Shown one piece after another: positions 40,579 to 61,627 of a stretch of DNA of 64,000 nucleotides. The notes below the pieces were generated by a model. The model worked only from the letters and a program-made list of their open reading frames with translations, was not told the DNA's origin and made no database searches. Source of the DNA: Parcubacteria group bacterium (GTDB lineage: Bacteria; Patescibacteriota; Minisyncoccia; Moranbacterales; UBA2206). Positions within the stretch are counted from its first letter, which is position 1; the number at the start of each line of letters is the position of its first letter. The position numbers and the translations under genes were made by a program. The stretch is taken from the NCBI GenBank assembly GCA_041664225.1, contig JBAYLE010000001.1, positions 4,939 to 68,938 on the forward strand, given 5' to 3'.

Positions 40579-40589
40579 TATCTCCAAAG

Positions 40590-40598
40590 TTATCCACA
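40590..40598 (+). promoter_or_regulatory. Perfect DnaA-box 9-mer TTATCCACA (within the longer AAAGTTATCCACAG), 19 nt upstream of a -35
   Basis: Exact match to the E. coli R1/R4-type consensus. Confidence 0.45.
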
Positions 40599-40616
40599 GT
40601 TTCAATTTTTACCTTA

Positions 40617-40645
40617 TTGACGGGAAAATTTTAAATTTGTATAAT
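40617..40645 (+). promoter_or_regulatory. Consensus sigma70 promoter TTGACG-17-TATAAT
   Basis: ttgacgggaaaattttaaatttgtataat. Confidence 0.65.
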
Positions 40646-40780
40646 AAGAGCAAGTAGTTTAACAATGTAAACCAGTACAGATCAATGTATCTGTACCCGG
40701 TTCTCCCAAAAAGGAGGCTGCCTATGGGACTTGTTTGAGAGTTTCTGAAAAGCATTTTTTAATCTCAAGAGGGAGTTTTT

Positions 40781-41272
40781 ATGAAGAAGGAATTCACACT
40801 TCTCATTGTTGTTTCATTGATTCTCGGACTCGTGGGTTTTTCAACCGCCTTTGCAACAACTCCGTCGACCGAAAACCAGAATCCATTTTCCCAGCAGATA
40901 ATGACGGCATATGAAGGCGTGACAAAAGCAGCAATCAACGGACAGACCATCGACACTGCATATTCGATAAGCGCAGGCAAGGTGGAGGCACAGAAGATCG
41001 AGGTTCAAAAAACGGGTAAGGCAGAAACAAAAGCACCTTTGGAAATCGTGGCGGCTGAACATGTACCGAAATATACCCTGAATAGAAGTGAAGGTACCGC
41101 GGCCGAGGCAAATTACATTGTGATAAAATCCGAGATGGATATTGGCGGAATGGGCGGAATCGCTCTCATTGCGTGGCAAAACGGAGGTGGTCCCACTGTA
41201 GGAACGGCGCAGATGGCAATCGCAATCAGAAATACATGGGCCCACACTGACGCCGGATTTGTACTCGTTTAA
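40781..41272 (+). CDS. Secreted protein of unknown function (signal peptide; Gly/Ala-rich C-terminal part)
   Basis: Lipoprotein-like signal MKKEFTLLIVVSLILGLVGFSTAFA. GGGAGT SD. GC-richer codon usage. Confidence 0.5.
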   Translation: MKKEFTLLIVVSLILGLVGFSTAFATTPSTENQNPFSQQIMTAYEGVTKAAINGQTIDTAYSISAGKVEAQKIEVQKTGKAETKAPLEIVAAEHVPKYTLNRSEGTAAEANYIVIKSEMDIGGMGGIALIAWQNGGGPTVGTAQMAIAIRNTWAHTDAGFVLV

Positions 41273-41357
41273 TACGATATGGCTGCAAAAGTAAATAAGT
41301 TAATCACTCTCGATTTGGATGTTTAACACATCATCCTCCTCGTTCTCACTTTTTAAA

Positions 41358-41404
41358 GCCTCTGGTTTTGCTTAACAGCGATCTTCACCAGAGGCTTTTT
41401 TATT
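41358..41404 (+). terminator. Rho-independent terminator (gcctctgg/ccagaggc stem, long loop, T9)
   Basis: gcctctggttttgcttaacagcgatcttcaccagaggcttttttattt. Confidence 0.55.
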
Positions 41405-41534
41405 TATTAAATTTCTTATAAAATTAGTTAAATTAAGGACCAAAGCGGATAGTTTATTGTCTGTTTGGGTGAGTGAATTTGGGGCTGGCGGAGGAGAGGA
41501 TTTTGGATTATACTAATTGGACTGAAAAGAAAAT

Positions 41535-43379
41535 ATGAAAAAAATATTAGATTCAGTCAATTTTCCCCAGGATATAAGAAATATTTCAGAGGACAAGTTG
41601 CCGCAACTTTGCTCGGAGGTGCGGGATTTTTTAATTGATAGTATTTCACGAACCGGCGGTCATTTTGGATCAAATCTGGGCGTGGTTGAGCTAACGGTCG
41701 CAATTCACCGGGTTTTTGATACCCCCAGAGACTTGCTGATTTGGGATGTAGGGCACCAAGCTTATCCGCACAAAATTTTGACTGGTCGCAAAGATCGGAT
41801 GGATACTATCAGAAAAAAAGGAGGACTGGCGCCTTTCCCCAAAAGAGAAGAGAGCGAATATGATCCTTTGAGCGTTGGTCATTCGGGCACCTCGATCAGT
41901 GCGGCCACAGGGATGGCGATTGCCAATAGAAATAAAAAAAATGCGCCACAGGTAGTGGCCGTGATTGGGGACGGGGCTCTCACGGGCGGAATGGCTTTTG
42001 AAGCGCTTGATCATGCGGGAGATGTCGGAGCGAATATCCTTGTGATTCTTAATGATAACAAGATGTCGATTTCGCCTAATGTGGGCAGTATGGGTAAGTA
42101 TCTAACGCGTCTGATTTCATCGCCAACGTATGTGCAATTGCGCGAGAGGGGAAGGGAAATACTCAGCAGTGTTCCGACCATCAAGAAACTTATACGCCGG
42201 GCCGAAGTCCAAACGAAAGGGATCATCACACCCGGAACGCTTTTTGAAGAATTAGGTTTTGATTATTATGGACCGATTGATGGGCATGATGTCAAGACAC
42301 TAGTGGAAGTTCTCACAAATCTCAAAAAAATCAAAGGTCCGAGATTTTTACACGTTATAACTACGAAAGGAAAGGGGTATGTGCCGGCGGAAGTCGATGA
42401 ATTTTCTTTGCATGCAGTAAAACCTTTTGACCCGGTTACAGGCAAAAAAAATGAAAACCAGAAAAAGGGCATAACTTTTACCAATGTTTTTTCTGATTGG
42501 ATATGCGATGCGGCAGAAAAAGATGTTCGGTTGCATGCTATTACACCGGCAATGTGTGACGGATCGGGGCTAGTTGAATTTAGCAAAAAATTTCCCAAGC
42601 GTTATCATGACGTTGGCATTGCCGAACAACACGCGGTAACTTTTGCGGCGGGTCTGGCTTGCGAGAGGAAAAAACCGGTGGTGGCAATTTATTCCACGTT
42701 TTTACAGCGGGCTTATGACCAACTGATCCATGATGTGGCGCTGCAAAATTTGAGCGTGCTTTTTGCCATTGATCGGGCCGGAGTGGTGGGGCAAGACGGC
42801 GCGACGCACGCCGGAAACTTGGATCTTTCGTTTATGCGGGCGGTTCCTAATTTAGTCATCATGGCGCCGGCAAATGAGAATGAATGTTATTCAATGTTAG
42901 AGGCGGGATACAAATATGATGGTCCAGTGGCGGTGAGATATCCAAGAGGCGGCAGCGGTGAAGAATATGACAAAAATAAATGCGAACCGATAGAAATTGG
43001 GAAAGCCAAGATAATCAGAGAGGGAGAAAAGGTTGCGATTTTGGCTTTTGGAACGATGGTGGGCAAAACAAAAAAAGCGGCTGAAAAATTAAACGCCACT
43101 TTGGTGAATATGCGATTTGTAAAACCACTGGACGAAGACCTTTTACGAGAGCTTGCGAAATCGCACGAATATTTTGTGACGGTTGAAGATAATGTTGTCG
43201 CCGGCGGTGCGGGCAGTGCGGTCAATGAATTTGTTTTCAGTGCCGGGCTAAAAGTGGCCGTGAAAAATATCGGACTTCCGGATAAATTTCTGGAACATGG
43301 GACGCGTGAAGAAATCCTGTCCGAATTTGGGCTGGACGAAGATAGTATCCTAAAGATAGTTTCTGATTTTGCTAAATAA
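41535..43379 (+). CDS. dxs: 1-deoxy-D-xylulose-5-phosphate synthase
   Basis: GGHFGSNLGVVELTVAIHRVFD, a TPP-binding GDG, and a transketolase-like C-terminal domain. Confidence 0.8.
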   Translation: MKKILDSVNFPQDIRNISEDKLPQLCSEVRDFLIDSISRTGGHFGSNLGVVELTVAIHRVFDTPRDLLIWDVGHQAYPHKILTGRKDRMDTIRKKGGLAPFPKREESEYDPLSVGHSGTSISAATGMAIANRNKKNAPQVVAVIGDGALTGGMAFEALDHAGDVGANILVILNDNKMSISPNVGSMGKYLTRLISSPTYVQLRERGREILSSVPTIKKLIRRAEVQTKGIITPGTLFEELGFDYYGPIDGHDVKTLVEVLTNLKKIKGPRFLHVITTKGKGYVPAEVDEFSLHAVKPFDPVTGKKNENQKKGITFTNVFSDWICDAAEKDVRLHAITPAMCDGSGLVEFSKKFPKRYHDVGIAEQHAVTFAAGLACERKKPVVAIYSTFLQRAYDQLIHDVALQNLSVLFAIDRAGVVGQDGATHAGNLDLSFMRAVPNLVIMAPANENECYSMLEAGYKYDGPVAVRYPRGGSGEEYDKNKCEPIEIGKAKIIREGEKVAILAFGTMVGKTKKAAEKLNATLVNMRFVKPLDEDLLRELAKSHEYFVTVEDNVVAGGAGSAVNEFVFSAGLKVAVKNIGLPDKFLEHGTREEILSEFGLDEDSILKIVSDFAK

Positions 43380-45646: not shown

Positions 45647-45655
45647 ATTAAAAAG

Positions 45656-45664
45656 TTATCCACA
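45656..45664 (+). promoter_or_regulatory. Perfect DnaA-box 9-mer TTATCCACA, 10 nt upstream of the lexA -35
   Basis: aaaagttatccacaagc. Confidence 0.45.
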
Positions 45665-45673
45665 AGCGGGGAT

Positions 45674-45731
45674 TTGACAAGTATTTGTATAGTGATATAC
45701 TATCAGTATAATTAATAAATTATATCACTAT
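45674..45731 (+). promoter_or_regulatory. lexA promoter (TTGACA ... TATAAT) overlapped by palindromes that could be a LexA operator
   Basis: ATAGTGATATA at 45689-45699 and its reverse complement TATATCACTAT at 45721-45731. The inner palindrome TGATAtacTATCA lies at 45693-45705. Confidence 0.45.
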
Positions 45732-46398
45732 GGAATCATTAACATCGAAACAAAATACTGTCCTGGAAACCATTCGCGAAATTATTAACACAGGCAAAGA
45801 AAATCCAACCGCTTATCGTGTGCATAAACATCTGGAAGAAAGAGGGGTAGAGGTAGGCAGTCTCAAAGGCACAGTCCAGGTGATTGAGGCGCTGGAGAAA
45901 AAGGACCTGCTCAAGAGAGATAAAAGTAAAAAAATCTATCTGGTGGAAAATGAGAATTACGCCGATTTGGGTAATATTTTTTCTATTCCGATGTATGGGC
46001 TGGCTTCTTGCGGTGAGGCGCTGGCATATGCTGACGATACTAATGTTGATGGCTATCTGCAAATTTCCAAAAGTCTTTTTCGCCAAAACGACCCGGCGCA
46101 GTTGTTTGCGGTCAAAGCCTTGGGGGACTCCATGGATAAAGAAGAAATCAATGATGGAGATTATGTGGTTTTTGAAAAGTGCGAACAGGGAAATGATTTT
46201 GAGGGCAAAATTGTAGTTGCAGTTATTAATGGCATGGCGACAATCAAGCGGTATAAAAAATTGAAGCATGGCATCATCGGATTGTTCCCGCACTCAAGCA
46301 ACAAGATACATCAGCCGATCTATCTGGACGAATCGGACTCAATTCTCATTGCTGGCGTCTTCCGAAAAGTCTTGCCAGTGGCGTATGTGAGTTTATAA
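45730..46398 (+). CDS. lexA: LexA repressor (S24 peptidase)
   Basis: N-terminal winged HTH, an AxG cleavage-site region, and the Ser-Lys dyad (GDSM ... KRYKK). Confidence 0.8.
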   Translation: MESLTSKQNTVLETIREIINTGKENPTAYRVHKHLEERGVEVGSLKGTVQVIEALEKKDLLKRDKSKKIYLVENENYADLGNIFSIPMYGLASCGEALAYADDTNVDGYLQISKSLFRQNDPAQLFAVKALGDSMDKEEINDGDYVVFEKCEQGNDFEGKIVVAVINGMATIKRYKKLKHGIIGLFPHSSNKIHQPIYLDESDSILIAGVFRKVLPVAYVSL

Positions 46399-46402
46399 AA
46401 TC

Positions 46403-46411
46403 TGTGGATAA
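46403..46411 (-). promoter_or_regulatory. Perfect DnaA-box 9-mer (reverse orientation) about 50 nt upstream of the nrdR promoter
   Basis: Forward strand reads ctgtggataacttt, which is the reverse complement of AAAGTTATCCACAG. Confidence 0.45.
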
Positions 46412-46461
46412 CTTTTGAAAATCTGAAAAAAATCTAGGAAAATCCGCCGGTTTGCAACATC

Positions 46462-46489
46462 TTGGCGGATTTTTCAATTGTGGTATAAT
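46462..46489 (+). promoter_or_regulatory. Promoter with an extended -10 (TTGGCG-16-TGgTATAAT) for the nrdR-nrdD operon
   Basis: ttggcggatttttcaattgtggtataat. Confidence 0.5.
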
Positions 46490-46578
46490 GACATTAATAT
46501 ATACAATATGTAGTATAAAAAGTTTATCCCGGCACAAATTTTTCTTAAGTTCTGGGATAATATTTTTGAGAAAAATCC

Positions 46579-47031
46579 ATGAATTGTCCTTTTTGCAATA
46601 ATAGCGAAACCAAAGTAGTTGATTCGCGAGATACCAATGAAGGCAAAATTACACGCCGAAGACGCGAATGTATCGAGTGCAATGCCCGATTCAGCACCTA
46701 TGAAGAAGTAGAACTTTTACGTTTGGCAGTTTTGAAGAAGAACGGCGAAAAAGTTGATTATGATAAAAGCAAGGTAGAGACCGGAGTCAGGCGAGCCTTA
46801 GTCAAACGACCGGTGACGCAGGAGCGGGTGGCTAAACTCTTGGGAGACATTGAGTATGAGATCCATGCCCTTGAAAAACCGGAAGTAACGACGCGGGAAA
46901 TCGGCAAGATTGTTCTCAAAAAGCTGAAAGAACTGGACGAGGTGGCGTATGTGAGGTTTGCCAGTGTGTACAAATCATTCGGAAGCGTAGAAAGTTTCAA
47001 AAAAGAACTGGATATGCTGGAAGATAAATAA
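46579..47031 (+). CDS. nrdR: Transcriptional repressor NrdR
   Basis: Zn ribbon MNCPFCNNSETKVVDSR...CIECNARF followed by an ATP-cone. Confidence 0.9.
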   Translation: MNCPFCNNSETKVVDSRDTNEGKITRRRRECIECNARFSTYEEVELLRLAVLKKNGEKVDYDKSKVETGVRRALVKRPVTQERVAKLLGDIEYEIHALEKPEVTTREIGKIVLKKLKELDEVAYVRFASVYKSFGSVESFKKELDMLEDK

Positions 47032-47090: not shown

Positions 47091-49286
47091 ATGAATGGAA
47101 AGATTATGGCGAAAACAAAAACGAAAAAAAGGGGAGTAAAAAAAGAAACACAAGAAAAGAAAAGCGTGAAAAAGGTTTCCGCAAAAAGGGAAACAAAAAA
47201 AACAGAGGAAAACAGGGTTACTAAGGTTATCAAGCGAAGCGGAAACGTGGTCAATCTTGATCCGGCGAAAATTGTTAAAGCAGTGAGCAAGGCCTTTTTA
47301 GCAACCGGCGAAGGCAGTCTCAAGGATGCGGAGAAAGTTTCCCAGAAAGTCGTTCAGCTTTTGAATAAAAATTACAAAAAGGGCTATCTTCCGGAAATTG
47401 AAGAAATCCAGGACCTCGTGGAAAGAGTTTTAATGATCTTGGATTTTGAAGAAACCGCCAAATCCTATATCTTGTACCGTGAACAGCATCGAAAAATTCG
47501 TGAAACAGAGGAGTCGCTGAAAGAAGCCGTTGACTTGGTGGATAAATATATCCAGGAAATTGACTGGAAGGTCAAAGAGAACGCCAATATGGCATATTCA
47601 CTGCAAGGACTTAACAATTATATTTCTTCCATCGTCAGCTCGAAGTATTGGATGAATCGCGTTTATACGAAAGAGATCCGCGAGGCGCACGAAGGCGGTG
47701 ATTTTCATATCCATGATTTGCAATTGGTAGCGGCTTATTGTTGCGGTTGGGATCTGCAAGATCTTATCCGCCGCGGATTTACCGGCGTTCCGGGCAAAGT
47801 CGCTTGCAAACCAGCCAAACATCTGGGATCAATTTTGGGGCAGATGGTTAATTTTATTTATACGCTTCAGGGAGAAGTGGCTGGCGCGCAGGCTTTCTCC
47901 AATTTCGATACCCTGCTGGCGCCATTTGTCCGGTGCGATAATTTGACTTACGAAAAAGTAAAACAAGAAATTCAGTCATTTGTTTTTAACATGAATGTTT
48001 CCACGCGCGTCGGATTTCAAACCCCTTTTTCCAACATCACCATGGACATCACCGCACCCAAAACTTTGGCAAAAGAAGCGGTGATTATCGGCGGCGTGCC
48101 GCAAAAAGAAACTTACGCGGACTTTCAGGAAGAAATGAATATGATCAATCGGGCTTTTGCCGAAGTTATGACGGAAGGCGACGCCAGCGGAAGAATTTTT
48201 ACTTTTCCGATTCCGACTTATAATATCGACAAAAACTTCAATTGGGCGGATGAAAAATTCAATGCTATCTGGGAGATGACGGCTAAATATGGCATTCCGT
48301 ATTTTGCCAACTTTATCAATTCCGATATGGATCCGGACGACGCGCGCAGTATGTGCTGTCGGCTGCGTCTGGATAATCGCGAGCTGCATAAGCGGGGCGG
48401 TGGACTCTTTGGCGCAAATCCCCTGACTGGATCAATTGGAGTCGTTACGATCAATATGCCGCGATTGGGATACGTAGCTAAGAATAAAAAAGATTTTTTT
48501 CAGCGCCTGGATAAGCTTATGGATATCGCCAAGGAAAGCCTGGAGGTTAAAAGAAAAATGGTGGAAAATATGACAGAGAAAGGTCTTTATCCATACACCA
48601 AAGTTTATTTAGATTCCATTAAGATGCGGCGCGGAGAATATTGGGCCAATCATTTTTCTACGATAGGCTTGATCGGGATGAATGAAGCTTTAATAAATTT
48701 GCTCGGAAAAGATATTTCTACCAAAGAAGGGCAAAAGTTCGCGGAAGAGGTGTTGGTGCATATGCGGGATCGAATGGTTAAATATCAAAAAGAGATGGGC
48801 AATATGTACAATCTTGAAGCTACGCCAGGAGAAGGGATTACACATCGTTTGGCGGGTATTGATAGAAAGAAATTTTCAGACATGGTTTTTGCCAACGACA
48901 AGGCGGTCAAAGCGGAAGGCGCAATCCCATATTACACAAATTCTTCCCAATTGCCGGTTTATTTTACGGATGATATTTTTGGTGCCCTTGATCTGCAGGA
49001 AAAATTGCAGACTAAATATACCGGAGGAACCGTGTTGCATGGATTTCTGGGAGAGCGCTTGTGGGATATCGAAACTACAAAGAATCTGGTCAGAAAAATC
49101 GCTGAAAATTATTCGTTGCCCTATTTTACTCTGACACCCACTTTCAGTATTTGCCCGGTACACGGTTATTTAAAAGGGGAGCACACGACTTGTCCCAAGT
49201 GCGTAATCGAACAAAAAACTGAAGTTTTTTTGAAGGTAGGAGAGGAAGAGCTTAGGGAAAAACAAGAAAAAATAATAAAAAAATAA
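47091..49286 (+). CDS. nrdD: Anaerobic (class III) ribonucleoside-triphosphate reductase with a degenerate C-terminal glycyl-radical tail
   Basis: ATP-cone, NrdD core, and the first Zn cluster FSICPVHGYLKGEHTTCPKC. After that the tail (KTEVFLKVGEEEL) lacks the RVxGY motif. The N-terminal extension is Lys-rich. Confidence 0.8.
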   Translation: MNGKIMAKTKTKKRGVKKETQEKKSVKKVSAKRETKKTEENRVTKVIKRSGNVVNLDPAKIVKAVSKAFLATGEGSLKDAEKVSQKVVQLLNKNYKKGYLPEIEEIQDLVERVLMILDFEETAKSYILYREQHRKIRETEESLKEAVDLVDKYIQEIDWKVKENANMAYSLQGLNNYISSIVSSKYWMNRVYTKEIREAHEGGDFHIHDLQLVAAYCCGWDLQDLIRRGFTGVPGKVACKPAKHLGSILGQMVNFIYTLQGEVAGAQAFSNFDTLLAPFVRCDNLTYEKVKQEIQSFVFNMNVSTRVGFQTPFSNITMDITAPKTLAKEAVIIGGVPQKETYADFQEEMNMINRAFAEVMTEGDASGRIFTFPIPTYNIDKNFNWADEKFNAIWEMTAKYGIPYFANFINSDMDPDDARSMCCRLRLDNRELHKRGGGLFGANPLTGSIGVVTINMPRLGYVAKNKKDFFQRLDKLMDIAKESLEVKRKMVENMTEKGLYPYTKVYLDSIKMRRGEYWANHFSTIGLIGMNEALINLLGKDISTKEGQKFAEEVLVHMRDRMVKYQKEMGNMYNLEATPGEGITHRLAGIDRKKFSDMVFANDKAVKAEGAIPYYTNSSQLPVYFTDDIFGALDLQEKLQTKYTGGTVLHGFLGERLWDIETTKNLVRKIAENYSLPYFTLTPTFSICPVHGYLKGEHTTCPKCVIEQKTEVFLKVGEEELREKQEKIIKK

Positions 49287-49310
49287 AAATAATAATTAAC
49301 CAAAAAAACT

Positions 49311-49610
49311 ATGAAAAAGCTTGTGTGCCACGATTGCGGCAAAACATTGGAAAAGGGGAGCGAATATGTCCTGTATGAAGTGGTATCAGACAAATTTATC
49401 AAATGTAAAGAGTGCTATAAAAAAGACCCGGTGTTGAAAAATTTCAAAAAAGCCGAAGTTTATTCCCGCGTAGTTGGTTATATACGCCCTGTGGAGCAAT
49501 GGAATGGCGCCAAGCAGGCCGAATTCGGCGACAGAAAAGAATATTGTGTGGGTTGTGCTCCCAAGAAGAAGACGATGAAAAAGATAGCCAAAAGGAAAGG
49601 AGAAAAATAG
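49311..49610 (+). CDS. Stand-alone Zn-ribbon plus glycyl-radical domain protein matching the NrdD C-terminus
   Basis: CHDC...CKEC Zn ribbon followed by AEVYSRVVGYIRPVEQWNGAKQAEFGDRKEY, which is the NrdD glycyl-radical signature. Confidence 0.75.
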   Translation: MKKLVCHDCGKTLEKGSEYVLYEVVSDKFIKCKECYKKDPVLKNFKKAEVYSRVVGYIRPVEQWNGAKQAEFGDRKEYCVGCAPKKKTMKKIAKRKGEK

Positions 49611-49682: not shown

Positions 49683-50375
49683 ATGATACTCGGAGGATAT
49701 CAAAAGTTAACTTTAATAGACTATCCCGGTAAGATAGCAGCCACAGTTTTTACTGTCGGTTGCAGTTTTCGCTGTCCGTTTTGCCATAATCCGGAATTGG
49801 TCAATCTGCGTTTGGCGCATGATGAGAAATCAGAAAAAGAATTTTTTGAATTTCTGAAAAAGCGCAAGGGAAAAATCGAAGGAGTCTGCATTACCGGCGG
49901 CGAACCGACTATACAGCCGGACCTGATCGATTTTATCAAAAAAATAAGAAAGTTGGGATTTTTGGTGAAACTAGATACTAATGGCAGTCGTCCGGATGTT
50001 TTGAAAAAACTGTTGGACGCAAAGCTTCTTGATTTTGTGGCGATGGATATAAAAAACAGTCTGAAAAGATATAACAAAACAATCGGGAATAAGGTCGACA
50101 CGGACCGGATCAAGTTGAGTGTTGATCTGATCAAAAATAGCCGGTTGCCATATGAGTTCAGAACCACAGTTGTTCCCGGAATTCACACCGAAAAAGATTT
50201 CGAAGAAATTACCAAATGGATCAAGGGTGCCAAAAGTTATTATCTCCAGGAGTATCGCGAAATAAAAATCTTAGATCCTAAATTAAAGAAGAAAACTAAA
50301 GGCAAAAAAATAGATCTGGAAAAAATTAAGAAAAAAATAGAAAATAATTTTGATAAAATGGGAATACGCAGATGA
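49683..50375 (+). CDS. nrdG: Class III RNR activating enzyme (radical SAM)
   Basis: CSFRCPFCHNPEL. Confidence 0.85.
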   Translation: MILGGYQKLTLIDYPGKIAATVFTVGCSFRCPFCHNPELVNLRLAHDEKSEKEFFEFLKKRKGKIEGVCITGGEPTIQPDLIDFIKKIRKLGFLVKLDTNGSRPDVLKKLLDAKLLDFVAMDIKNSLKRYNKTIGNKVDTDRIKLSVDLIKNSRLPYEFRTTVVPGIHTEKDFEEITKWIKGAKSYYLQEYREIKILDPKLKKKTKGKKIDLEKIKKKIENNFDKMGIRR

Positions 50376-50593
50376 GAATTTATGTAAAAGTTTCGCCTCG
50401 TTCTTCTAAAAACGAAGTCACTCGAGTTTCCGAGGGAGAATATAAGGTGAAACTGACTGCTCCGCCAGTTGACGGACAAGCCAATGATATGCTAATCAAA
50501 ATTTTGGCTGAATACTTTGACGTCGCCAAGAGTTGCGTAAAAATAGTCGGTGGCAAGTCAGCGAAAACAAAAATAATAGAAGTATCTGGGTGA
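50372..50593 (+). CDS. DUF167/YggU family protein
   Basis: MRIYVKVSPRSSKNEV...LTAPPVDGQAN. Confidence 0.7.
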   Translation: MRIYVKVSPRSSKNEVTRVSEGEYKVKLTAPPVDGQANDMLIKILAEYFDVAKSCVKIVGGKSAKTKIIEVSG

Positions 50594-52143
50594 ATAAATC
50601 GAAAATTTTTCTCATTTTGTCGTTGAGTTTTATTGGGGGGATTTTTTTACGGTCATTTTTTGATATCAATGTTTACATTGTTTATTTTTTAGCAATTCTG
50701 GCTGTAATAGTCGTCAGTGTTTTTTACCCCCACACCAATTCCAAAGATCCAAAAAAAGCTTCTGATAAAAATACAGGCAATATCAGTGATGAAATTGGTG
50801 TGGGGGTGAATAAAAATAAAATAATTTTAGTTTCGGGATGCGCAATCCTGTTTTTTGTTTTTGGTATTTGGCTGGTGGGAGAAAAACTTTCGGAAACAAA
50901 AAATATAAATCAGAAAGTGAGAGTCTTTTCAGGCGAAGCCTTGATTGCCAAAGAACCCGTTATAAAAGACAATTACCAGCAAATTGTGGTGGAAATATTA
51001 CTTAAAAGCGAAGCTCCTAAGTCGAAAGTTTTGATAAATGTCGGAAAATATCCGGAATATTTTTATGGCGATAAAATAAAGCTTGGTTGCAATTTGGAGA
51101 TGCCGCAAAATTACGAGGATGGTTTTGACTATCGGATGTATCTGGCCAAGGATAGAATTTTTTATGTTTGCAAAAGCGCAAAATTAGAGCTAATAGAGCA
51201 TGACCAGGGTAATAAACTTTATGCTGGAATTTTAAAACTAAAAAATAATTTTAATAAAAATATCAACCAGCTGATTCCATTTCCCGAATCTGGACTGATG
51301 AGCGGGCTGATTTTGGGCGGCAGTTCCGGGTTGCCAAAAGAGTTGCAAAACAATTTTTCGCGTACGGGGCTTACGCACATCGTGGCTGTTTCCGGGTATA
51401 ATGTTACGATTCTAGCGGAATATCTGATCTGGTTTTTTATTTTTATCGGGCTATGGAGAAAACAGGCTTTCTGGTTTGCCATCTCGGGAATTTTTCTTTT
51501 TGTCCTGATGACCGGCCTGCCATCTTCGGCGGTGCGGGCGGGAGTGATGGGTTCGCTTTTGCTTTGGGCGATGAAAAACGGGCGGCTGGCTAATTCGCGA
51601 AATGCGATTGTTTTTGCGGCAGCGGTGATGTTGGTTTTGAATCCATTGGCACTGCGCTGGGATATCGGATTTCAGCTTTCATTTCTAGCGACGCTCGGAA
51701 TAATTTATTTGTTTCCACTGTTTGAAGAAAAATTAAACAGAAATGGCAAAATGTTCTGGCTGTGGGAAATTCTATTTTTGTCTCTCTCTGCGCAAATTTT
51801 TGTGCTACCAATAATTTTGTATAATTTCCATAATTTATCACTTATTGCTCTTTTAGCTAATATTTTGATTTTGCCGATCATTCCACTGACGATGCTATTG
51901 GGATTTCTCATGGCAATGACTAATTTTATTTTTGCGCCTCTGGCAACGGTGCTGGCTTGGTTGACATTCTTGCCGCTCAAATACGAAACGACAGTTGTCA
52001 ACATTTTGGCTAGCTTTAATTTTTCCGCGGTAGAAATTAAAAATTTTCCATGGTGGGGAGTTGCGGTTTGGTATATAATAATCTTACTTTCTTTGTTCGC
52101 AAAGAAAGTAACAAAGAAACTCTCGAGCAGGCTCATAAATTGA
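50590..52143 (+). CDS. comEC: ComEC/Rec2 competence channel, membrane domain only
   Basis: GLTHIVAVSGYNVTILAEY and more than 10 TM helices. GTG at 50590 overlaps the yggU stop. The alternative TTG start at 50533 is the one listed by the ORF finder. Confidence 0.7.
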   Translation: MNKSKIFLILSLSFIGGIFLRSFFDINVYIVYFLAILAVIVVSVFYPHTNSKDPKKASDKNTGNISDEIGVGVNKNKIILVSGCAILFFVFGIWLVGEKLSETKNINQKVRVFSGEALIAKEPVIKDNYQQIVVEILLKSEAPKSKVLINVGKYPEYFYGDKIKLGCNLEMPQNYEDGFDYRMYLAKDRIFYVCKSAKLELIEHDQGNKLYAGILKLKNNFNKNINQLIPFPESGLMSGLILGGSSGLPKELQNNFSRTGLTHIVAVSGYNVTILAEYLIWFFIFIGLWRKQAFWFAISGIFLFVLMTGLPSSAVRAGVMGSLLLWAMKNGRLANSRNAIVFAAAVMLVLNPLALRWDIGFQLSFLATLGIIYLFPLFEEKLNRNGKMFWLWEILFLSLSAQIFVLPIILYNFHNLSLIALLANILILPIIPLTMLLGFLMAMTNFIFAPLATVLAWLTFLPLKYETTVVNILASFNFSAVEIKNFPWWGVAVWYIIILLSLFAKKVTKKLSSRLIN

Positions 52144-52344
52144 CAAATTCTCGTCTCGCTGGCTAAAAGTTCACGGCTGCTTCCGAGGCGGAATCAAGGA
52201 ACTTTTTTAACGCCAGCTTCGCCGGAATTTGTGACAATTTATTTCGCAATGCTCGAAAAATTATGTCTAACTTTTTTAAACACTCAAGAACCTCAATTTG
52301 TAATAGTAAATTAGCTAGGTTGGATATAGTCTAAATTTTTAAAA

Positions 52345-53208
52345 ATGCGCAATAGAAAAACAACTTACATATTTCTTTTGGCTTTATTGGTTTTGGCGTC
52401 AATTTTGGCCGGAGTTATTTTTGTCCAAAAATCGCGAGAGTTGAAAATAATTTTTTTGGATGTCGGGCAGGGTGACGCGATTTTGATCGAACAAGGCTCA
52501 AAGCAAATTCTGATTGACGGCGGGCCGAGCGGGCAAGCGCTTTTGGAAAAATTAGGCAAACTTGTTCCCTTTTGGGATAGAAACATTGAAATGATCATCG
52601 TGACTCATCCGGATGCTGATCACATCACTGGTTTGGTGGATGTGATGCAAAATTATAATATTGGAATAGTCATGCAGACCAATGGCACAAGCGATTCGCA
52701 AATTTTCAAAAAATTTGAAGATTTGATCCGAATGAAAAAAATCGAAACGATCGAAGCGCAAAGAGGAGAAAAAATAAACTTAGCGGAAAATACCGAGATA
52801 GAAATTTTAAATCCTAGTCTGGAAACTCCGATTAGCGCTGAGGACACAAACGCAAGCAGCGTAGTTGCTCGTTTAATTTTTGGAGAGAATACATTTTTAT
52901 TCACAGGCGATTTGCCGGTTGAGCAAGAAGCAGAGCTGATAAATAAAAATATAAATTTAGCCGCGAAGGTGCTTAAGATTGCCCATCATGGCTCAAAATA
53001 TTCCACCAGCAGAGAATTTTTGCAGGCTGTTAATTCGGAGGACGCGGTAATTTCTGTTGGTAAAAATAATCGCTATGGCCATCCGGCGGCTGAAACGATC
53101 GAAAGGCTCAAAAATAAAAGCATAAGAATTTTGAGGACTGATGAGATGGGGGACATTGAATACGCGTGTGCGAATCCTGTTGCAAAATGCACTGTTGTTG
53201 CCAACTGA
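52345..53208 (+). CDS. ComEC C-terminal metallo-beta-lactamase domain as a separate ORF
   Basis: IFLDVGQGDAILIE and HPDADHITG. Confidence 0.75.
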   Translation: MRNRKTTYIFLLALLVLASILAGVIFVQKSRELKIIFLDVGQGDAILIEQGSKQILIDGGPSGQALLEKLGKLVPFWDRNIEMIIVTHPDADHITGLVDVMQNYNIGIVMQTNGTSDSQIFKKFEDLIRMKKIETIEAQRGEKINLAENTEIEILNPSLETPISAEDTNASSVVARLIFGENTFLFTGDLPVEQEAELINKNINLAAKVLKIAHHGSKYSTSREFLQAVNSEDAVISVGKNNRYGHPAAETIERLKNKSIRILRTDEMGDIEYACANPVAKCTVVAN

Positions 53209-53281: not shown

Positions 53282-54361
53282 ATGAAATACGAAAAAGATT
53301 TTCCGGTTTTCAAGACTAAAGTCGAAGGGCTGGATAAAAAATTTGATTTATCAGATTTGAGCGGGAGACAGGAATATTTTCAGGCTAAGGCTGGAGATGA
53401 AATTGCCAAGTTAAAGAAATTTTTTGATGAAGGCAACACTTTCATTGCTTATCTTTTAGGCAAGAAAAACGCAGGCAAGGGGACTTATACAAAGTTACTG
53501 ATGGAAATATTTGGCAAGGATAAAATCGCGCACATTTCAGTGGGTGATGTTGTCAGAGATATCCACGCGGCCATGGAAGATCCGGAGGAAAAGAAAGCCC
53601 TGATAGAATATATGAATAAAAATTATAGAGGCTATATTTCTGTCGAGAATGGCATTAACGCGCTTTTGGACAGGGATCAAAAAACGCTTTTGCCCAATGA
53701 ATTCATAATGGCCTTAGTAAAAAGGGAAATCAGCAAGGCTGGCAAAAAAGCAGTCTTTCTTGACGGATTTCCGAGAAATTTGGATCAAGTTTCTTATGCT
53801 TTGTTTTTCAAAGAGCTGGTTGATTTCAGAGAAGACCCGGATATTTTTGTGGCTATTGATATTCCAGAGGCGGTTATTGATGAACGCATGAAGTTCAGAG
53901 TTGTTTGTCCAATTTGCCATACTCCGAGAAATTTAAAACTTTTTTCGACCAAGGAAGTTGGTTATGATGAAACTGCCAAGAAATTTTTTCTAAAATGTGA
54001 CAACCCGGAATGCAAGGGGGCTGCGATGAGCGGCAAAGAAGGTGATAATATGGGCATTGAATCAATTCGCGACAGGCTCGAGCTGGATGAAAAATTGATT
54101 AATAAAATTTTCACATTGCACGGAGTTTCAAAGATTCTGCTTAGAAATGCTGTTCCTGTGGCTGTAGCTAAGGATACGGTTGATGAATATGAAATCACTC
54201 CGGCTTACAGTTATGAATATGATGAAAATGCAAAGACAGTGAAGACCATTGAATCCCCATTTGCGGTGAAAGATGATGAGGGCGTGGAAGTGTATAGTCT
54301 TTTAGCGCCTCCGGTTGTTGTTTCGTTTGTAAAACAATTGGCCAAGGCATTGGGACTGTAG
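53282..54361 (+). CDS. Adenylate-kinase-family protein with N- and C-terminal extensions
   Basis: P-loop GKKNAGKGT. NMP-binding ISVGDVVRD. LDGFPRN. Zn-LID VCPICH...C..PEC. Confidence 0.55.
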   Translation: MKYEKDFPVFKTKVEGLDKKFDLSDLSGRQEYFQAKAGDEIAKLKKFFDEGNTFIAYLLGKKNAGKGTYTKLLMEIFGKDKIAHISVGDVVRDIHAAMEDPEEKKALIEYMNKNYRGYISVENGINALLDRDQKTLLPNEFIMALVKREISKAGKKAVFLDGFPRNLDQVSYALFFKELVDFREDPDIFVAIDIPEAVIDERMKFRVVCPICHTPRNLKLFSTKEVGYDETAKKFFLKCDNPECKGAAMSGKEGDNMGIESIRDRLELDEKLINKIFTLHGVSKILLRNAVPVAVAKDTVDEYEITPAYSYEYDENAKTVKTIESPFAVKDDEGVEVYSLLAPPVVVSFVKQLAKALGL

Positions 54362-54392: not shown

Positions 54393-54401
54393 TTATCCAC
54401 A
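54393..54401 (+). promoter_or_regulatory. Perfect DnaA-box 9-mer TTATCCACA
   Basis: cggcttatccacaatc. Confidence 0.35.
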
Positions 54402-54414
54402 ATCTGTTCTCGAC

Positions 54415-54448
54415 AAAAAATCCTCTTCTTCAGAGGATTTTTCTTTTT
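54415..54448. terminator. Bidirectional rho-independent terminator (A6 aaatcctct/agaggattt T-run) serving the + strand kinase gene and rpmB on the - strand
   Basis: aaaaaatcctcttcttcagaggatttttcttttt. Confidence 0.7.
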
Positions 54449-54459: not shown

Positions 54460-54627
54460 TTATTTGGACATCGTTTTGACACAGCGGGTGCAGACCTTCT
54501 TTTTCACGCCATCAACCTTTTTGGTTTGCAGATTAATACTGAATTTTCGAAGAGATTTAACATTGGAATGGCTGACCTTGTGTCCGGACTGCGCGCCGCG
54601 GCCGCAAATAGAACATACTTTACTCAT
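54460..54627 (-). CDS. rpmB: 50S ribosomal protein L28 (55 aa; absent from the supplied ORF list because it is under 60 aa)
   Basis: The reverse complement translates to MSKVCSICGRGAQSGHKVSHSNVKSLRKFSINLQTKKVDGVKKKVCTRCVKTMSK. This matches the L28 pattern MSKVCxxCG...SHSNxKTKRRFxxNLQ. Confidence 0.75.
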   Translation of the reverse strand: MSKVCSICGRGAQSGHKVSHSNVKSLRKFSINLQTKKVDGVKKKVCTRCVKTMSK

Positions 54628-55530: not shown

Positions 55531-55560
55531 AATTCGCTCGCAATTAGCGAATTTTTATTT
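55531..55560 (+). promoter_or_regulatory. Perfect 8-bp hairpin plus U-run placed between an AGGAAG SD-like element and the rpsL AUG
   Basis: aattcgctcgcaattagcgaatttttatttt, with the ATG at 55562. Confidence 0.5.
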
Positions 55561-55561
55561 T

Positions 55562-55981: not shown

Positions 55982-56007
55982 TAAAGAGTTAAAGATTTTA
56001 TAAAATT

Positions 56008-56475: not shown

Positions 56476-56536
56476 AAATTAATTTTTTTTAAGACATTAG
56501 GACCTTTGGGGCCCATTGATCTGGTTTTTAAATTTT

Positions 56537-58627: not shown

Positions 58628-58700
58628 GACTTGTAACGCTTTTAATAAAAAATCCCGGCTTTAAGGGTCGGGGTTTTTATTTTCATGGTATAATTATTTT

Positions 58701-59351: not shown

Positions 59352-59380
59352 AATAATTTTTTGTTTGATAAATTTCTTAA

Positions 59381-59421
59381 AAAGATAAAAAATAAATCCC
59401 CGCTGTGCCTTGCGGGGATTT
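59381..59421 (-). terminator. Rho-independent terminator for the 407-aa minus-strand gene (aaatccccgc/gcggggattt stem, T-run on the minus strand)
   Basis: Forward strand reads aaaagataaaaaataaatccccgctgtgccttgcggggattt. Confidence 0.65.
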
Positions 59422-59426
59422 GGTGG

Positions 59427-60650
59427 TCACAGTATGACCGTTTTCGCGCCGAGAGGAAGAGTTCCAGGAAGGAGCTTTTCCTTGTGCACAATTGATGGTT
59501 TTACCCGGACGCATTTTGGAGCTTCCAATATGCGTCCTTGGCCGGGTCTTTTGCGAAAAGTTCCGCTGCGGAAGTGGAAACACTTCTCGCCACCGCCACC
59601 TTTTCGGCTATGGCGGATCATTTCTGCCAGCTGTCTGTCTCTCCTGTCCAGATAATTGGTGAGATCGAGGACAAAAAGTTGTGAACTATGGGTAATTGCT
59701 TTTTTATTATTGATTTTGTCTCCAATGATTGACTTCCATTTTTCCGGTCTTGAGTAATGAAGTGATGGAAGAGTGTTGAGATATTGGCAGAAGCTGATTG
59801 CCAAATGTCTGGCTTTTTCAAGGATGGAATATCTCATAAATTTATCCTCGGTGTCTGTGGAACTAGCTGCCAAATCTATCCCTCGTTCAGCACCGAAGAC
59901 TTCCAAGCGTTGATGGAAATCTTTGAAACTTTCCGTAAGAGGCGTATCAACCGGAGTGCTGCTTTGATCCGATTTTTCAAAAACCGTAAAGAATGAGTCC
60001 ATATATGCTATTCCCATGGTGTTAATCTTATGAAACAATTTTTCCATATATGGATATCCACGCTTTCTGATCATCTTTGGAATCACTCCCATGTCTTCCT
60101 TGGAAAGCATCCGGTATTCATCTAACTTTTTCGAAAATGCCGAGATACTTATAAAATCATTTCCTTCCAGATCCGGAATACAATCGCTGATATTACTAAC
60201 CAGTAGAAAATCAAATTCATTTCCTTTTTCATCAGTAAGTGGCTCTCCCAATTCGATGCCGAACGAGCGCAATGGCCAGTCGATATCTTCCCAATCTGTC
60301 CCCTTGAGCGATGTCGCGCTCAGAATCGTCTGGAGGTCGGCGGGGACATGGAAGACTCTTCTGGAATGTCTGGTCCAGGCGAAGAGATCCGGAGGCAATG
60401 ATCCCAGATGCAATAATTCTGACCAAGTGCCGATCGAGCCGGAAAAACGATCTTGATCAAAAGGTCCATTGAGGCTTTGCATAAGATGGTCTCGAAACTC
60501 TGGTGCGTGAAGCAAGGGGCCCTCAATGGCGCGAGGAATCTTATTCTTGAATTGTGGAAAAGCTTCCCAATAGGTTCTGAGAATAAAACAAAAATCTTCC
60601 CAAAGCCTTAACGCTTGCTCTAGACGAAGAACATGTTTGCCTTGTGGCAT
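59427..60650 (-). CDS. Hypothetical 407-aa protein, GC-richer than its surroundings; no recognisable motif
   Basis: Long ORF with protein-like composition. About 45% GC versus about 40% in the flanks. CTG/CCG codons are used, unlike the host genes. Confidence 0.5.
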   Translation of the reverse strand: MPQGKHVLRLEQALRLWEDFCFILRTYWEAFPQFKNKIPRAIEGPLLHAPEFRDHLMQSLNGPFDQDRFSGSIGTWSELLHLGSLPPDLFAWTRHSRRVFHVPADLQTILSATSLKGTDWEDIDWPLRSFGIELGEPLTDEKGNEFDFLLVSNISDCIPDLEGNDFISISAFSKKLDEYRMLSKEDMGVIPKMIRKRGYPYMEKLFHKINTMGIAYMDSFFTVFEKSDQSSTPVDTPLTESFKDFHQRLEVFGAERGIDLAASSTDTEDKFMRYSILEKARHLAISFCQYLNTLPSLHYSRPEKWKSIIGDKINNKKAITHSSQLFVLDLTNYLDRRDRQLAEMIRHSRKGGGGEKCFHFRSGTFRKRPGQGRILEAPKCVRVKPSIVHKEKLLPGTLPLGAKTVIL

Positions 60651-60821
60651 AAGTTATCCTTTCCTGCGGCTGTATTTTTAAAGAAAAACAACTGATGAAA
60701 GAGTATAACTCCAATTTGGTAATTTGTCAATATCCATCAAAAATACTTGCATCTTTTGTAAGATTTTGCTAGAAATATGATAGTACAAAAAAGAATAATT
60801 TTTTGGAAAGGGGGGTGTTTT

Positions 60822-61196
60822 ATGTCAGAAGCCATCACATTCAACGCCAAAAACATTAGAGCACAGGATTTAGGTGAGTTGCTTAGCGCTTCAATGATGA
60901 TGTTGACGGGATTAGCCTGGAGAACAACTGTTGTTACGGATGAGCTGGTGGCCGAGATAGATCGCATGAGAAACTCAGTTGTACGCAAAATGAATCCGCG
61001 GATCTGGGAAAAATATCCCGGCGTCTGGTTCACCGCCAAAGTGACGACTGCCGAAGTGGATGCGCAAGAGATCATTTTTATTATGCTGGATGATGATTTG
61101 TCATCATCGGCAGCGAACAGATCTTTCTCAATGATGGAAACGATGGAACAACCCGAAGAAGATCCTTTTTATGTCAGTATCGTTTCCTTGAATTGA
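60822..61196 (+). CDS. Hypothetical 125-aa protein (start preceded by AAAGGGGGGTG)
   Basis: ORF with a strong SD, divergent from the 407-aa gene. Confidence 0.45.
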   Translation: MSEAITFNAKNIRAQDLGELLSASMMMLTGLAWRTTVVTDELVAEIDRMRNSVVRKMNPRIWEKYPGVWFTAKVTTAEVDAQEIIFIMLDDDLSSSAANRSFSMMETMEQPEEDPFYVSIVSLN

Positions 61197-61213
61197 GGGA
61201 GTATGCTGATGAG

Positions 61214-61254
61214 CTAGCCGGGCTAGTTTATAACCCGGCTAGTTTTTTTATTTT
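61214..61254 (+). terminator. Rho-independent terminator (ctagccggg/cccggctag stem plus T7)
   Basis: ctagccgggctagtttataacccggctagttttttt. Confidence 0.65.
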
Positions 61255-61277
61255 CTGATTCGGGTAGAGACGGGCGA

Positions 61278-61306
61278 TTGACAGAGTCTTTAAAATGAAT
61301 TAAAAT
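61278..61306 (+). promoter_or_regulatory. Sigma70 promoter TTGACA-17-TAAAAT for the 92-aa ORF
   Basis: ttgacagagtctttaaaatgaattaaaat. Confidence 0.55.
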
Positions 61307-61338
61307 TTATTCATAACATCAAAGATAAGCATATTTTT

Positions 61339-61617
61339 ATGTTTGATAAAAAACTCAAAGAGGCGCTGGAGCTTTTGGGCGGGAAAGCGATTTTGAATGA
61401 CGAGCAACAGTATTATGTCGTGATGACTTTAAAAGAATTTAAGAAAATGAAACAGGATGGCGTTGAGGGCTTGACAAAGCAGGAATTGGTTGATAAGATT
61501 AACAACGATATCGCCATTTGGAAAGTTTCTCAGGAGGATGAAGAAATGGCCATAAAGATGGAAGAATTGGAAGAGAGCGAGCCGGAAGAAATCCATTACG
61601 AAAAACCGGTGGCTTGA
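61339..61617 (+). CDS. Hypothetical acidic 92-aa protein
   Basis: ORF with its own promoter. E/D-rich C-terminus. Confidence 0.4.
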   Translation: MFDKKLKEALELLGGKAILNDEQQYYVVMTLKEFKKMKQDGVEGLTKQELVDKINNDIAIWKVSQEDEEMAIKMEELEESEPEEIHYEKPVA

Positions 61618-61618
61618 C

Positions 61619-61627
61619 TTATCCACA
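61619..61627 (+). promoter_or_regulatory. Perfect DnaA-box 9-mer TTATCCACA, 13 nt upstream of the tuf -35
   Basis: gacttatccacaggag. Confidence 0.4.

Follow-up and report, generated by a model that had tools for sequence, protein, structure and literature searches.

In a stretch of DNA of 64,000 nucleotides (the window), taken from a MAG of Candidatus Moranbacteria (Patescibacteria/CPR) with a tiny genome, the 9-mer TTATCCACA occurs between genes as lone copies, and the best explanation for these intergenic boxes in this lineage is that they are held by selection. They are probably isolated, single, high-affinity DnaA boxes serving as promoter-proximal regulatory sites, conserved at lexA, nrdR and tuf. 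Retention of the box at lexA, nrdR-nrdDG and tuf in dozens of relatives indicates that the element is genuinely regulatory and belongs to a known kind.

Five exact copies are present in the window, at 40590-40598 (+), 45656-45664 (+), 46403-46411 (-), 54393-54401 (+) and 61619-61627 (+), that is one per 13 kb with 0.7-8 kb between boxes. This reproduces the sites listed in an earlier note on this DNA, whose chance figure of about 0.8 was of the right order of magnitude: dinucleotide-preserving shuffles gave a mean of 0.51 and a maximum of 3, and none of 100 reached five. A crude gene call assigns 93.5% of the window to ORFs, and the remaining non-coding DNA (~4.1 kb) holds all five sites, as previously claimed, where 0.025-0.05 would be expected under a Markov model. 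The 23 one-mismatch variants are all coding and occur at about the chance rate (about 15 expected). The longer form AAAGTTATCCACA(G/A) is indeed common to three sites. That each box lies just upstream of a -35 element was found to be true of sites 1, 2, 3 and 5 and not of site 4 (54393), after which no promoter was found. The features are, in order along the window:

40586..40599, + strand: site 1, an extended box (AAAG-TTATCCACA-G) that follows the purH terminator, 18 nt 5' of the hyp163 -35
40617..40645, + strand: promoter-like TTGACG-17-TATAAT (11/12) of hyp163, which encodes a secreted protein with a signal peptide (40781-41272)
45652..45665, + strand: site 2, extended box AAAG-TTATCCACA-A, 9 nt 5' of the lexA -35
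45674..45701, + strand: lexA promoter TTGACA-16-TATACT (11/12, TG-extended)
45691..45707, + strand: palindrome AGTGATATACTATCAGT across the lexA -10, a putative LexA operator separate from the box
45730-46398: lexA CDS
46402..46415, - strand: site 3, extended box (AAAG-TTATCCACA-G on the minus strand), 5 nt past the lexA stop and 50 nt 5' of the nrdR -35
46439..46473, + strand: hairpin AAAATCCGCC...GGCGGATTTT, lexA terminator/insulator, whose 3' arm includes the nrdR -35
46462..46489, + strand: nrdR promoter TTGGCG-16-TATAAT with TG extension
46499..46516, + strand: NrdR-box-like palindrome ATATACAATATGTAGTAT, just 3' of the nrdR -10
46579-47031, 47091-49286 and 49683-50375: operon of nrdR, nrdD (plus a fragment, 49311-49610) and nrdG
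54393..54401, + strand: site 4, box C-TTATCCACA-A, in the spacer of two convergent genes and before their shared terminator
54416..54442, no strand assigned: bidirectional terminator hairpin AAAAATCCTCT-TCTTC-AGAGGATTTTT, common to the adk-like gene and rpmB
54460-54627, - strand: rpmB, ribosomal protein L28, 55 aa (PF00830, E = 4e-14)
61618..61628, + strand: site 5, box C-TTATCCACA-G, 2 nt past the hyp92 stop and 12 nt 5' of the tuf -35
61640..61668, + strand: tuf promoter TTGCCA-17-TACAAT
61775-62968: tuf CDS

The stringent DnaA-box consensus is TT[A/T]TNCACA, which the five window sites and 108 intergenic sites in relatives match at 9/9 positions. The conserved unit, A[G/C]TTATCCACA[G], is short (about 12 nt), with A at -2 in 93%, G/C at -1 in 98% and G at +1 in 71% of cases, and columns past -4 and +2 at background level (85 aligned sites). 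These flanks agree with those of the E. coli oriC boxes R1 (ttgTTATCCACAggg) and R4 (gagTTATCCACAgta), taken from NC_000913.3; a G at -1 is likewise present in R2 and R3. The 9-mer is asymmetric, without internal symmetry, and no second box was found within 30 nt of any site, all offsets being checked. Since a monomeric binder would give an asymmetric single site, the shape of the box agrees with DnaA, of which domain IV and its box are conserved among bacterial phyla. From the identity with the universal DnaA box, we infer that DnaA may bind these sites and affect transcription.

The comparison set covered 1.4 Mb in 108 related loci. There, intergenic DNA yielded 108 copies of TTATCCACA where 1.2-2.5 were expected, and coding DNA 38 where 9-15 were expected, counts that represent non-independent events; the intergenic enrichment is at least 40-fold, and the 9-mer ranks top among intergenic 9-mers when low-complexity ones are excluded. 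The massive intergenic enrichment that the earlier note had anticipated is therefore present both in the window and in relatives, and the alternative it had raised, a longer dispersed repeat, came out against, with conservation ending about 2 nt beyond the 9-mer. Conservation at individual genes was also borne out. An exact box lies upstream of lexA (within 300 nt) in 40 of 58 related loci, with a one-mismatch box in 5 more, and upstream of tuf in 22 of 38, with a one-mismatch box in 4 more, and all 24 nrdR loci carry it; around these boxes the sequence has turned over. Outside these three upstream regions, 20 of 697 intergenic regions (about 3%) have a box, about 1 being expected. Because rpsL, atp and the other promoters examined are without it, TTATCCACA is not a general promoter element.

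At lexA, the box mostly stands 8-10 nt upstream of the -35, or 6-7 nt where it is inverted (L019, L051, L052, L054 and L055). The palindrome AGTGATA-N3-TATCACT overlaps the lexA -10 in most loci and is likely the LexA operator. An identity of the box itself with the LexA operator (SOS box) was rejected, since the box is asymmetric and 5' of the -35 and the promoter has its own palindrome at -10. At nrdR, the box is usually inverted, with its orientation reversed once (L022), and it travels with nrdR where other genes part nrdR from lexA. Its distances to the -35 (28, 38-40, 47-52 and 60-61 nt) follow steps of about 11 bp (resultant 0.87 for a period of 11 bp), and they do so over at least three hairpins of unrelated sequence; this helical-phase evidence draws on perhaps 4-6 independent spacing classes. 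Downstream of the nrdR -10, ACACTATATATAGT is conserved in relatives at the palindrome ATATACAATATGTAGTAT, which we take to be NrdR-box-like from the NrdR-box consensus; given this separate palindrome, the box was rejected as an NrdR operator. At tuf, the spacing between box and -35 varies from 7 to 20 nt.

Sites 1 and 4 are recent, lineage-specific gains. The box at the hyp163 promoter is absent from the more distant homologous locus L113, the single readable one, and conservation of site 4, which has an adenylate-kinase-like gene (stop at 54361) on one side and the minus-strand rpmB on the other, is only sporadic. Both may contribute to regulation, or may merely bind DnaA. The rpmB gene (54460-54627) had been overlooked in the earlier reading of this region. 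Overall, the earlier interpretation is partly supported: enrichment, conservation and the distinction from oriC stand, a promoter at site 4 does not, and two of the five sites are lineage-specific.

With regard to mechanism, a DnaA monomer would hold the box via domain IV and would modulate RNA polymerase at the adjoining promoter, so that the SOS repressor, dNTP synthesis and EF-Tu supply would respond to the level or nucleotide state of DnaA. The lexA box would lie roughly at -53 to -45 from the start site, beside the presumed LexA-operator palindrome on the -10, and at nrdR-nrdD-nrdG the inverted box would stand one to four helical turns 5' of the -35, beside the putative NrdR box. At nrdR, a DnaA-ATP oligomer that spread from the 5' (TT) end of the box, in the way seen at E. 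coli oriC, would extend towards the promoter, an orientation that would fit repression when DnaA-ATP is high, as in the case of E. coli nrdAB. The orientation at lexA and tuf would make such an oligomer grow away from the promoter, which suits a fixed-position contact. The orientation flips at lexA and nrdR and the variable tuf spacing argue against a single rigid contact between protein and polymerase. Regulation of nrdAB by DnaA is known in E. coli, and it has been proposed for RNR genes in B. subtilis and Caulobacter (review PMC8203912). Against a regulatory role for the boxes stand the facts that every site is a lone box, that site 4 has no promoter and that site 1 is not conserved. Of the 32 perfect single boxes in E. 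coli, DnaA binds only 13 in vivo, its preference being for box pairs 2-3 bp apart (PMC11317965).

Other explanations have to be weighed. That the sites reflect chance or composition, fragments of a repeat or mobile element, a DNA-uptake sequence or a replication origin is very improbable; beyond the fact that they are short and were first spotted by eye, nothing else speaks for it. Chance is opposed by the shuffles and by the enrichment in relatives, and a dispersed repeat, REP or MITE was rejected on the grounds that, from about 2 nt outwards, the flanks of the different sites show no relation to one another. DNA uptake sequences occur roughly once per kb, in coding and intergenic DNA alike, and in terminators they often form inverted pairs; such an identity was rejected for a 9-mer that is found about once per 13 kb in the window, strictly in intergenic DNA there, and never paired. 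The window is not oriC, as the earlier note had proposed from the dispersion of the boxes, because no three boxes lie within 600 bp (one mismatch allowed, save chance coding hits), GC skew is positive throughout with no switch, and dnaA is absent. The window and 111 Moranbacteria-related loci contained neither dnaA nor oriC, and the matches of a DnaA search that started from B. subtilis were all from Bacilli. That no dnaA or oriC of the clade was seen would also be in line with recognition of A[G/C]TTATCCACAG by another protein, either a clade-specific transcription factor or a stand-alone protein like DnaA domain IV, the identity with the DnaA box being then coincidental or derived. The near invariance of the ~12-nt motif and the lack of intergenic one-mismatch variants in the window, a stricter pattern than DnaA usage in model bacteria, would fit such a protein, as would the observation that lone boxes in E. 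coli are often not bound by DnaA (PMC11317965). Nevertheless, we consider it unlikely: a coincidental 9/9 match to a universal consensus with R1/R4-type flanks is hard to accept, domain IV and its box are shared across bacterial phyla, most bacterial transcription factors use palindromes or direct repeats rather than an asymmetric site, and a box before ribonucleotide reductase genes is a known arrangement of DnaA targets (PMC8203912).

Alternatively, the boxes might bind DnaA mainly to hold or titrate the initiator, as a distributed datA-like reservoir that helps to time replication in a genome without other control systems, with promoter effects secondary or absent. Lone perfect boxes with best-binding flanks are what a titration site needs, and with 5 in 64 kb they are about 10 times as dense as in E. 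coli, which has 32 in 4.6 Mb (PMC11317965). The position of site 4 between convergent genes, the gain and loss of boxes between close relatives and the boxes in about 3% of unrelated intergenic regions point in the same direction. Titration needs no fixed position, however, and the lexA box keeps its distance from the -35, just as the nrdR box keeps its helical phase with the -35 in 24/24 loci despite unrelated spacers. Moreover, three promoters retain the box while LexA identities fall from about 90% to 64%, and most intergenic regions have none. A role confined mainly to titration thus appears improbable, and regulation from promoter-proximal DnaA boxes remains the reading that we favor.

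A broader proposal can be made only tentatively, and we regard it as rather doubtful: that DnaA of Moranbacteria, whose genomes measure roughly 1 Mb and encode few regulators, is a global transcription factor acting through lone, perfect, extended boxes (AGTTATCCACAG) at a set position about 50 bp upstream of transcription starts, with lexA, nrdR-nrdDG and tuf as core regulon and the boxes doubling as a distributed titration system. If so, replication-initiation potential would directly set the SOS repressor level, dNTP synthesis and translation capacity, and several dozen boxes per genome, as estimated from their density, would also titrate DnaA and help to time initiation. Such single-box action would depart from the rule of paired or clustered boxes of E. 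coli and B. subtilis.

In comparison with known systems, the boxes share with R1 and R4 of E. coli oriC the same 9-mer, G at -1 and G at +1, and with R4 also A at -2 (AGTTATCCACAG), but they are dispersed single copies adjoining promoters, without low-affinity array, DNA-unwinding element or skew switch. As proposed for datA/DARS and initiator titration in E. coli, high-affinity boxes outside oriC could sequester DnaA; those loci are multi-box with IHF or Fis sites, whereas the present boxes are single and mostly tied to promoters. In the B. subtilis DnaA regulon (Goranov 2005, Ishikawa 2007, Breier & Grossman 2009, Smith & Grossman 2015, Washington 2017; as cited in PMC8203912), DnaA is a replication-responsive transcription factor at intergenic regions outside oriC, as proposed here, but through multi-box clusters at a handful of loci rather than lone perfect boxes at a fixed promoter position, and with a much lower density per genome length. 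Another known system is E. coli nrdAB, a ribonucleotide reductase operon with a DnaA-box consensus upstream of its -35, which DnaA activates or represses (Tuggle & Fuchs 1986, Augustin 1994, Olliver 2010; as cited in PMC8203912), and where the presumed logic is likewise to tie dNTP supply to initiator status. That operon is of class Ia, with a pair of boxes plus an ATP-DnaA site; here the operon is the anaerobic class III nrdR-nrdD-nrdG, led by its own repressor gene, and one lone perfect box stands inverted 28-61 nt from the -35 with a terminator-like hairpin between. Finally, E. coli uvrB and recN, co-regulated by DnaA and LexA (Wurihan 2018, as cited in PMC8203912), combine a DnaA box and a LexA operator (putative in our case) in one promoter region, linking initiation to SOS. 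In Moranbacteria it is lexA itself that would be targeted, so that the whole regulon would be affected via the repressor level, with the box 5' of the -35, the LexA palindrome on the -10 and this arrangement conserved across a phylum-level lineage.

The perfect DnaA-box 9-mer TTATCCACA was found five times in the window, at every position claimed for it in the earlier note, while dinucleotide-preserving shuffles of the window held 0.51 copies on average and never reached five. Open reading frames (ORFs) from a crude greedy gene call cover 93.5% of the window (about 40% G+C), and all five copies lie in the ~4.1 kb of non-ORF DNA, where a Markov model expects 0.025-0.05; they are thus intergenic, as had been proposed. 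The other 9-mers that top the intergenic frequency list of the window are all A/T-rich. This signal is confined to the perfect 9-mer, and the one-mismatch variants are unremarkable (23 in the window, all coding, about the chance rate with about 15 expected). The extended AAAGTTATCCACA is common to three of the five sites. Gene names for the flanks come from NCBIfam and Pfam.

Perfect DnaA boxes of the window, numbered along it, and the features beside them
40590-40598, plus strand: site 1, exact TTATCCACA, after the terminator of the split purH and 18 nt upstream of the hyp163 -35
Upstream of 40781-41272, plus strand: promoter TTGACG-17-TATAAT of hyp163, a signal-peptide protein gene
45656-45664, plus strand: site 2, exact TTATCCACA, 9 nt upstream of the lexA promoter TTGACA-16-TATACT
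46403-46411, minus strand: site 3, exact TTATCCACA, 5 nt past the lexA stop and 50 nt upstream of the -35 (TTGGCG) of nrdR-nrdD-nrdG
54393-54401, plus strand: site 4, exact TTATCCACA, flanked by the stop of an adenylate-kinase-like gene (54361) and by a hairpin at 54416-54442
54460-54627, minus strand: rpmB, 55 aa, ribosomal protein L28 (PF00830)
61619-61627, plus strand: site 5, exact TTATCCACA, 2 nt past the stop of a 92-aa ORF and 12 nt upstream of the tuf promoter TTGCCA-17-TACAAT

The earlier note had placed all of the boxes just upstream of a -35 element. This is true of sites 1, 2, 3 and 5 and not of all five, because no promoter was found 3' of site 4; the hairpin at 54416-54442 is a terminator common to the adenylate-kinase-like gene and the minus-strand rpmB. 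The latter gene, in an almost wholly plus-strand window, was missed at the 60-aa ORF cut-off, and the plus-strand ORFs overlying it are spurious. A non-coding RNA downstream of site 4 was considered and rejected, as there is no meaningful Rfam match and the conserved stretch is rpmB itself. Another terminator hairpin lies between site 3 and the nrdR promoter, its 3' arm containing the nrdR -35.

Related loci (handles beginning with L) were collected in two sets. Searching with the window LexA against one genome per species gave 62 loci. Nearly all belong to Candidatus Moranbacteria/Moraniibacteriota (Parcubacteria, Patescibacteria/CPR), their LexA being 90% to 63% identical to the query; apart from these there are a Saccharibacteria outlier (L060, 37%) and one partial match over query residues 2-72 only. 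A metagenome scan with the 92-aa protein encoded upstream of tuf gave 46 further loci, and the window and both sets together amount to 1.41 Mb. Counting both strands of this total, the 160 kb of intergenic DNA contain 108 copies of the 9-mer where order 0-3 Markov models predict 1.2-2.5, and the 1.25 Mb of ORFs contain 38 where 9-15 are predicted, several of these 'coding' matches being the nrdR-upstream box under a spurious ORF. The marked intergenic preference seen in the window is also that of the 1.41 Mb, in line with the intergenic placement first proposed. In the relatives' loci TGTGGATAA is the commonest intergenic 9-mer outside low-complexity ones, and with the lexA, nrdR and tuf upstream regions excluded the 9-mer still occurs in 20 of 697 intergenic regions, where about 1 is expected. 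It is absent from the Saccharibacteria locus (20.6 kb).

When 85 intergenic sites were aligned on the box, position -2 was A in 93%, position -1 was G in 82% and C in 16% and never A or T, and position +1 was G in 71% and T in 1%; columns beyond these near flanks were at background. This makes the element about 12 nt long, A[G/C]TTATCCACA[G] (the extended form A[G/C]TTATCCACAG), and not a piece of a longer repeat. The sites are single, since all offsets within 30 nt were searched and gave no further box in either orientation. The double DnaA box, with copies 2-3 bp apart as in E. coli ChIP-seq, was accordingly rejected for want of a partner at any offset.

At lexA, 40 of the 58 loci with enough upstream sequence carry an exact box within 300 nt of the gene and 5 more a one-mismatch box, and in several of the remaining loci a box stands farther upstream, ahead of an inserted ORF. 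The layout is constant: box, 8-10 nt that are usually G-rich, then TTGACA or TTGCAG fused to GTGATA. The box is inverted, 6-7 nt from the -35, in L051, L052, L054 and L055, and likewise, as a one-mismatch copy, in L019. About 6-7 nt beyond the fused GTGATA, a palindrome AGTGATAgAATATCACT overlaps the -10; with one mismatch it is found at 45691-45707 in the window, as the sole such site in the 64 kb, and is the obvious candidate for a LexA operator. Box and palindrome are thus distinct elements; being asymmetric and upstream of the -35, the box was rejected as the operator itself. The putative operator is of the form AGTGATA-N3-TATCACT, with a further half-site fused to the -35 (TTGACAGTGATA; window 45674-45707 and the lexA promoters of L003-L061), and is unlike the SOS boxes of E. 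coli (CTGT-N8-ACAG) and Gram-positives (CGAAC-N4-GTTCG).

About 2 kb upstream of lexA in L025-L027, L032 and L056, an inverted box comes right after the uvrB stop, 7 nt upstream of a promoter TTGCAA-16-TAGAAT, behind which come a small ORF and the gene of a cysteine-rich, membrane-anchored protein of ~345 aa. In this subclade the regulon may thus have a further conserved member. The ~345-aa gene that follows a box upstream of lexA in several loci was considered as recA and rejected, its product being membrane-anchored and not RecA.

The box is most constant at nrdR, where it precedes the conserved promoter TTGG(C/T)N-N16-TGnTATAAT in 24 of 24 nrdR-containing loci, inverted in 23 and direct in one. 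One to five genes separate lexA from nrdR in L001, L003, L004, L006, L009, L010, L017, L059 and L061, and the box remains with nrdR; it is thus part of the nrdR control region and not of the lexA end. Its distance to the -35 is 28 (three loci), 38-40 (eight), 47-52 (nine) or 60-61 (three), values that differ by about 11 bp from class to class (a period of 11 gives a mean resultant of 0.87), and the intervening spacers include at least three unrelated hairpins. A face-of-helix contact with the promoter complex would predict such a helical phase, kept despite spacer turnover; this evidence is suggestive, since the independent events are few. The nrdR promoter is followed by an NrdR-type palindrome ACACTATATATAGT; directly downstream of the -10, in the window (46499-46516) and in the 24 loci, it is of the NrdR-box-like ATACACTATATATAGTAT type, so the operon appears to be NrdR-autoregulated.

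The conserved tuf promoter is separated from the gene before it by an exact box in 22 of 38 distinct loci, always in the tuf direction and 7 to 20 nt from the -35, and four further loci have a one-mismatch box. Conservation among relatives thus holds for nrdR, lexA and tuf and fails for the other two sites. In L113, the only readable more distant hyp163 locus (37% protein identity), the promoter and a conserved leader are retained and the box is absent, and a box near the spacer corresponding to ndk/adk-rpmB is found only in L013, L016 and L101. From this distribution, sites 1 and 4 look like recent gains.

Both leaders have features of their own. The tuf leader (window 61700-61760 and L066-L105) carries a hairpin TTCG(C/T)AAA...TT(G/A)CGAA ~60-75 nt upstream of the start codon in 20 of 20 aligned loci, with compensatory changes at one pair and a second, variable hairpin next to it. 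The ~135-nt hyp163 leader (window 40646-40780; L113 1700-1858), conserved at 37% protein identity as tttaacaatgtaaacc...cagatcaatgyatctg...ccaaaaaggagg, contains a hairpin, has no Rfam match and may act in cis as a regulatory RNA. The rpsL-rpsG-fusA-tuf-rpsJ region often has leader RNAs in other bacteria; although the 64-kb window includes this region, neither tRNA genes nor Rfam families at gathering score were found in it. Three genes are split into adjacent ORFs: purH (38604-40521; IMP cyclohydrolase and AICAR transformylase parts with an 11-nt overlap), comEC (50533-53208; membrane and metallo-beta-lactamase parts) and nrdD (47091-49610; the C-terminal fragment a separate 99-aa ORF). Since related loci show the nrdD and comEC splits too, these are not assembly errors. 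Moreover, the leucyl-tRNA synthetase (27600-30449) has a NUDIX match (PF00293, E = 3e-11) at residues 406-503, just past the editing domain, an insertion unusual for this enzyme.

Taken as sequence evidence, the 9/9 consensus match, the R1/R4-type flanks, the asymmetry, the single copies and the known association of DnaA boxes with ribonucleotide reductase promoters in E. coli lead us to infer that the element is a binding site for monomeric DnaA domain IV, whose base-contacting residues in the E. coli domain IV-DNA crystal structure are R399, P423, D433, H434, T435 and H439. The fixed or phased distance to three promoters, together with retention over deep divergence, suggests a transcriptional role. 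The sites would thus be promoter-proximal DnaA boxes through which DnaA probably modulates lexA, nrdR-nrdDG and tuf. A non-DnaA factor of the same specificity would require a large coincidence. A titration or reservoir role is compatible with site 4, the gain and loss of boxes and their high density, but it leaves the fixed geometry at lexA and nrdR unexplained.

Chance is excluded by the shuffle and enrichment tests, and the dispersed repeat, named beforehand as a possible refutation, by flank conservation. An uptake sequence was rejected on density, and a sigma-factor element on variable distance and orientation. An origin was rejected as well, in agreement with the earlier note: no clusters turned up even with relaxed boxes, and GC skew is positive throughout the window without change. 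By tblastn with B. subtilis DnaA, dnaA had no match in the window or the compared loci, and it is absent from the ~6 kb flank beyond the window; a protein-database search seeded with the same DnaA returned only Bacillaceae, and no Moranbacteria DnaA, among its best 120.

If the boxes are indeed bound by DnaA, their orientation can be compared with that at oriC, where the low-affinity sites run outward from R1 and R4 on the 5' (TT) side. On this model, the inverted nrdR box would nucleate a DnaA-ATP oligomer growing in the direction of the nrdR promoter, an arrangement suited to repression at high DnaA-ATP, as for E. coli nrdAB. At lexA and tuf the oligomer would leave the promoter behind, an arrangement suited to a positional contact.

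CPR (Candidate Phyla Radiation) bacteria are not culturable on their own and have genes for very few regulators, and to our knowledge almost nothing is known of their transcriptional regulation. Here, a DnaA box is under strong selection, lineage-wide, at the promoters of three central functions, and one 1-kb stretch offers three readable cis-elements, namely the DnaA box, the putative LexA operator and the putative NrdR box. The 12-mer could aid in finding promoters and DnaA regulons in CPR metagenome bins. Should DnaA bind, replication-transcription coupling would survive, or even be elaborated, in minimal genomes.

It is well established that DnaA can serve as a transcription factor at DnaA boxes, with ribonucleotide reductase as a classic target. 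Full-text literature searches found no paper tying DnaA boxes to Patescibacteria/CPR promoters. Four things are new: the lineage; the target genes, namely lexA itself, tuf and a class III nrd operon with nrdR at its head; the design of a lone perfect box with conserved flanks; and the strength of the comparative signal. DnaA boxes at ribonucleotide reductase promoters are known in E. coli and have been proposed in B. subtilis and Caulobacter (PMC8203912); if DnaA binds, lexA and tuf would join the known target classes. The flanks of the Moranbacteria box are those of the strongest known DnaA boxes: in E. coli oriC (NC_000913.3), R1 is ccttgTTATCCACAgggca and R4 is cagagTTATCCACAgtaga, and R2 and R3 likewise have G at -1, with A or G at +1. 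Of the 32 perfect single boxes in E. coli, DnaA occupies only 13 in vivo, with a preference for pairs (PMC11317965). The lone-box design of the Moranbacteria either works differently or reflects a higher-affinity interaction and, provided that DnaA binds, would offer a natural system where single boxes suffice, without pairs or clusters.
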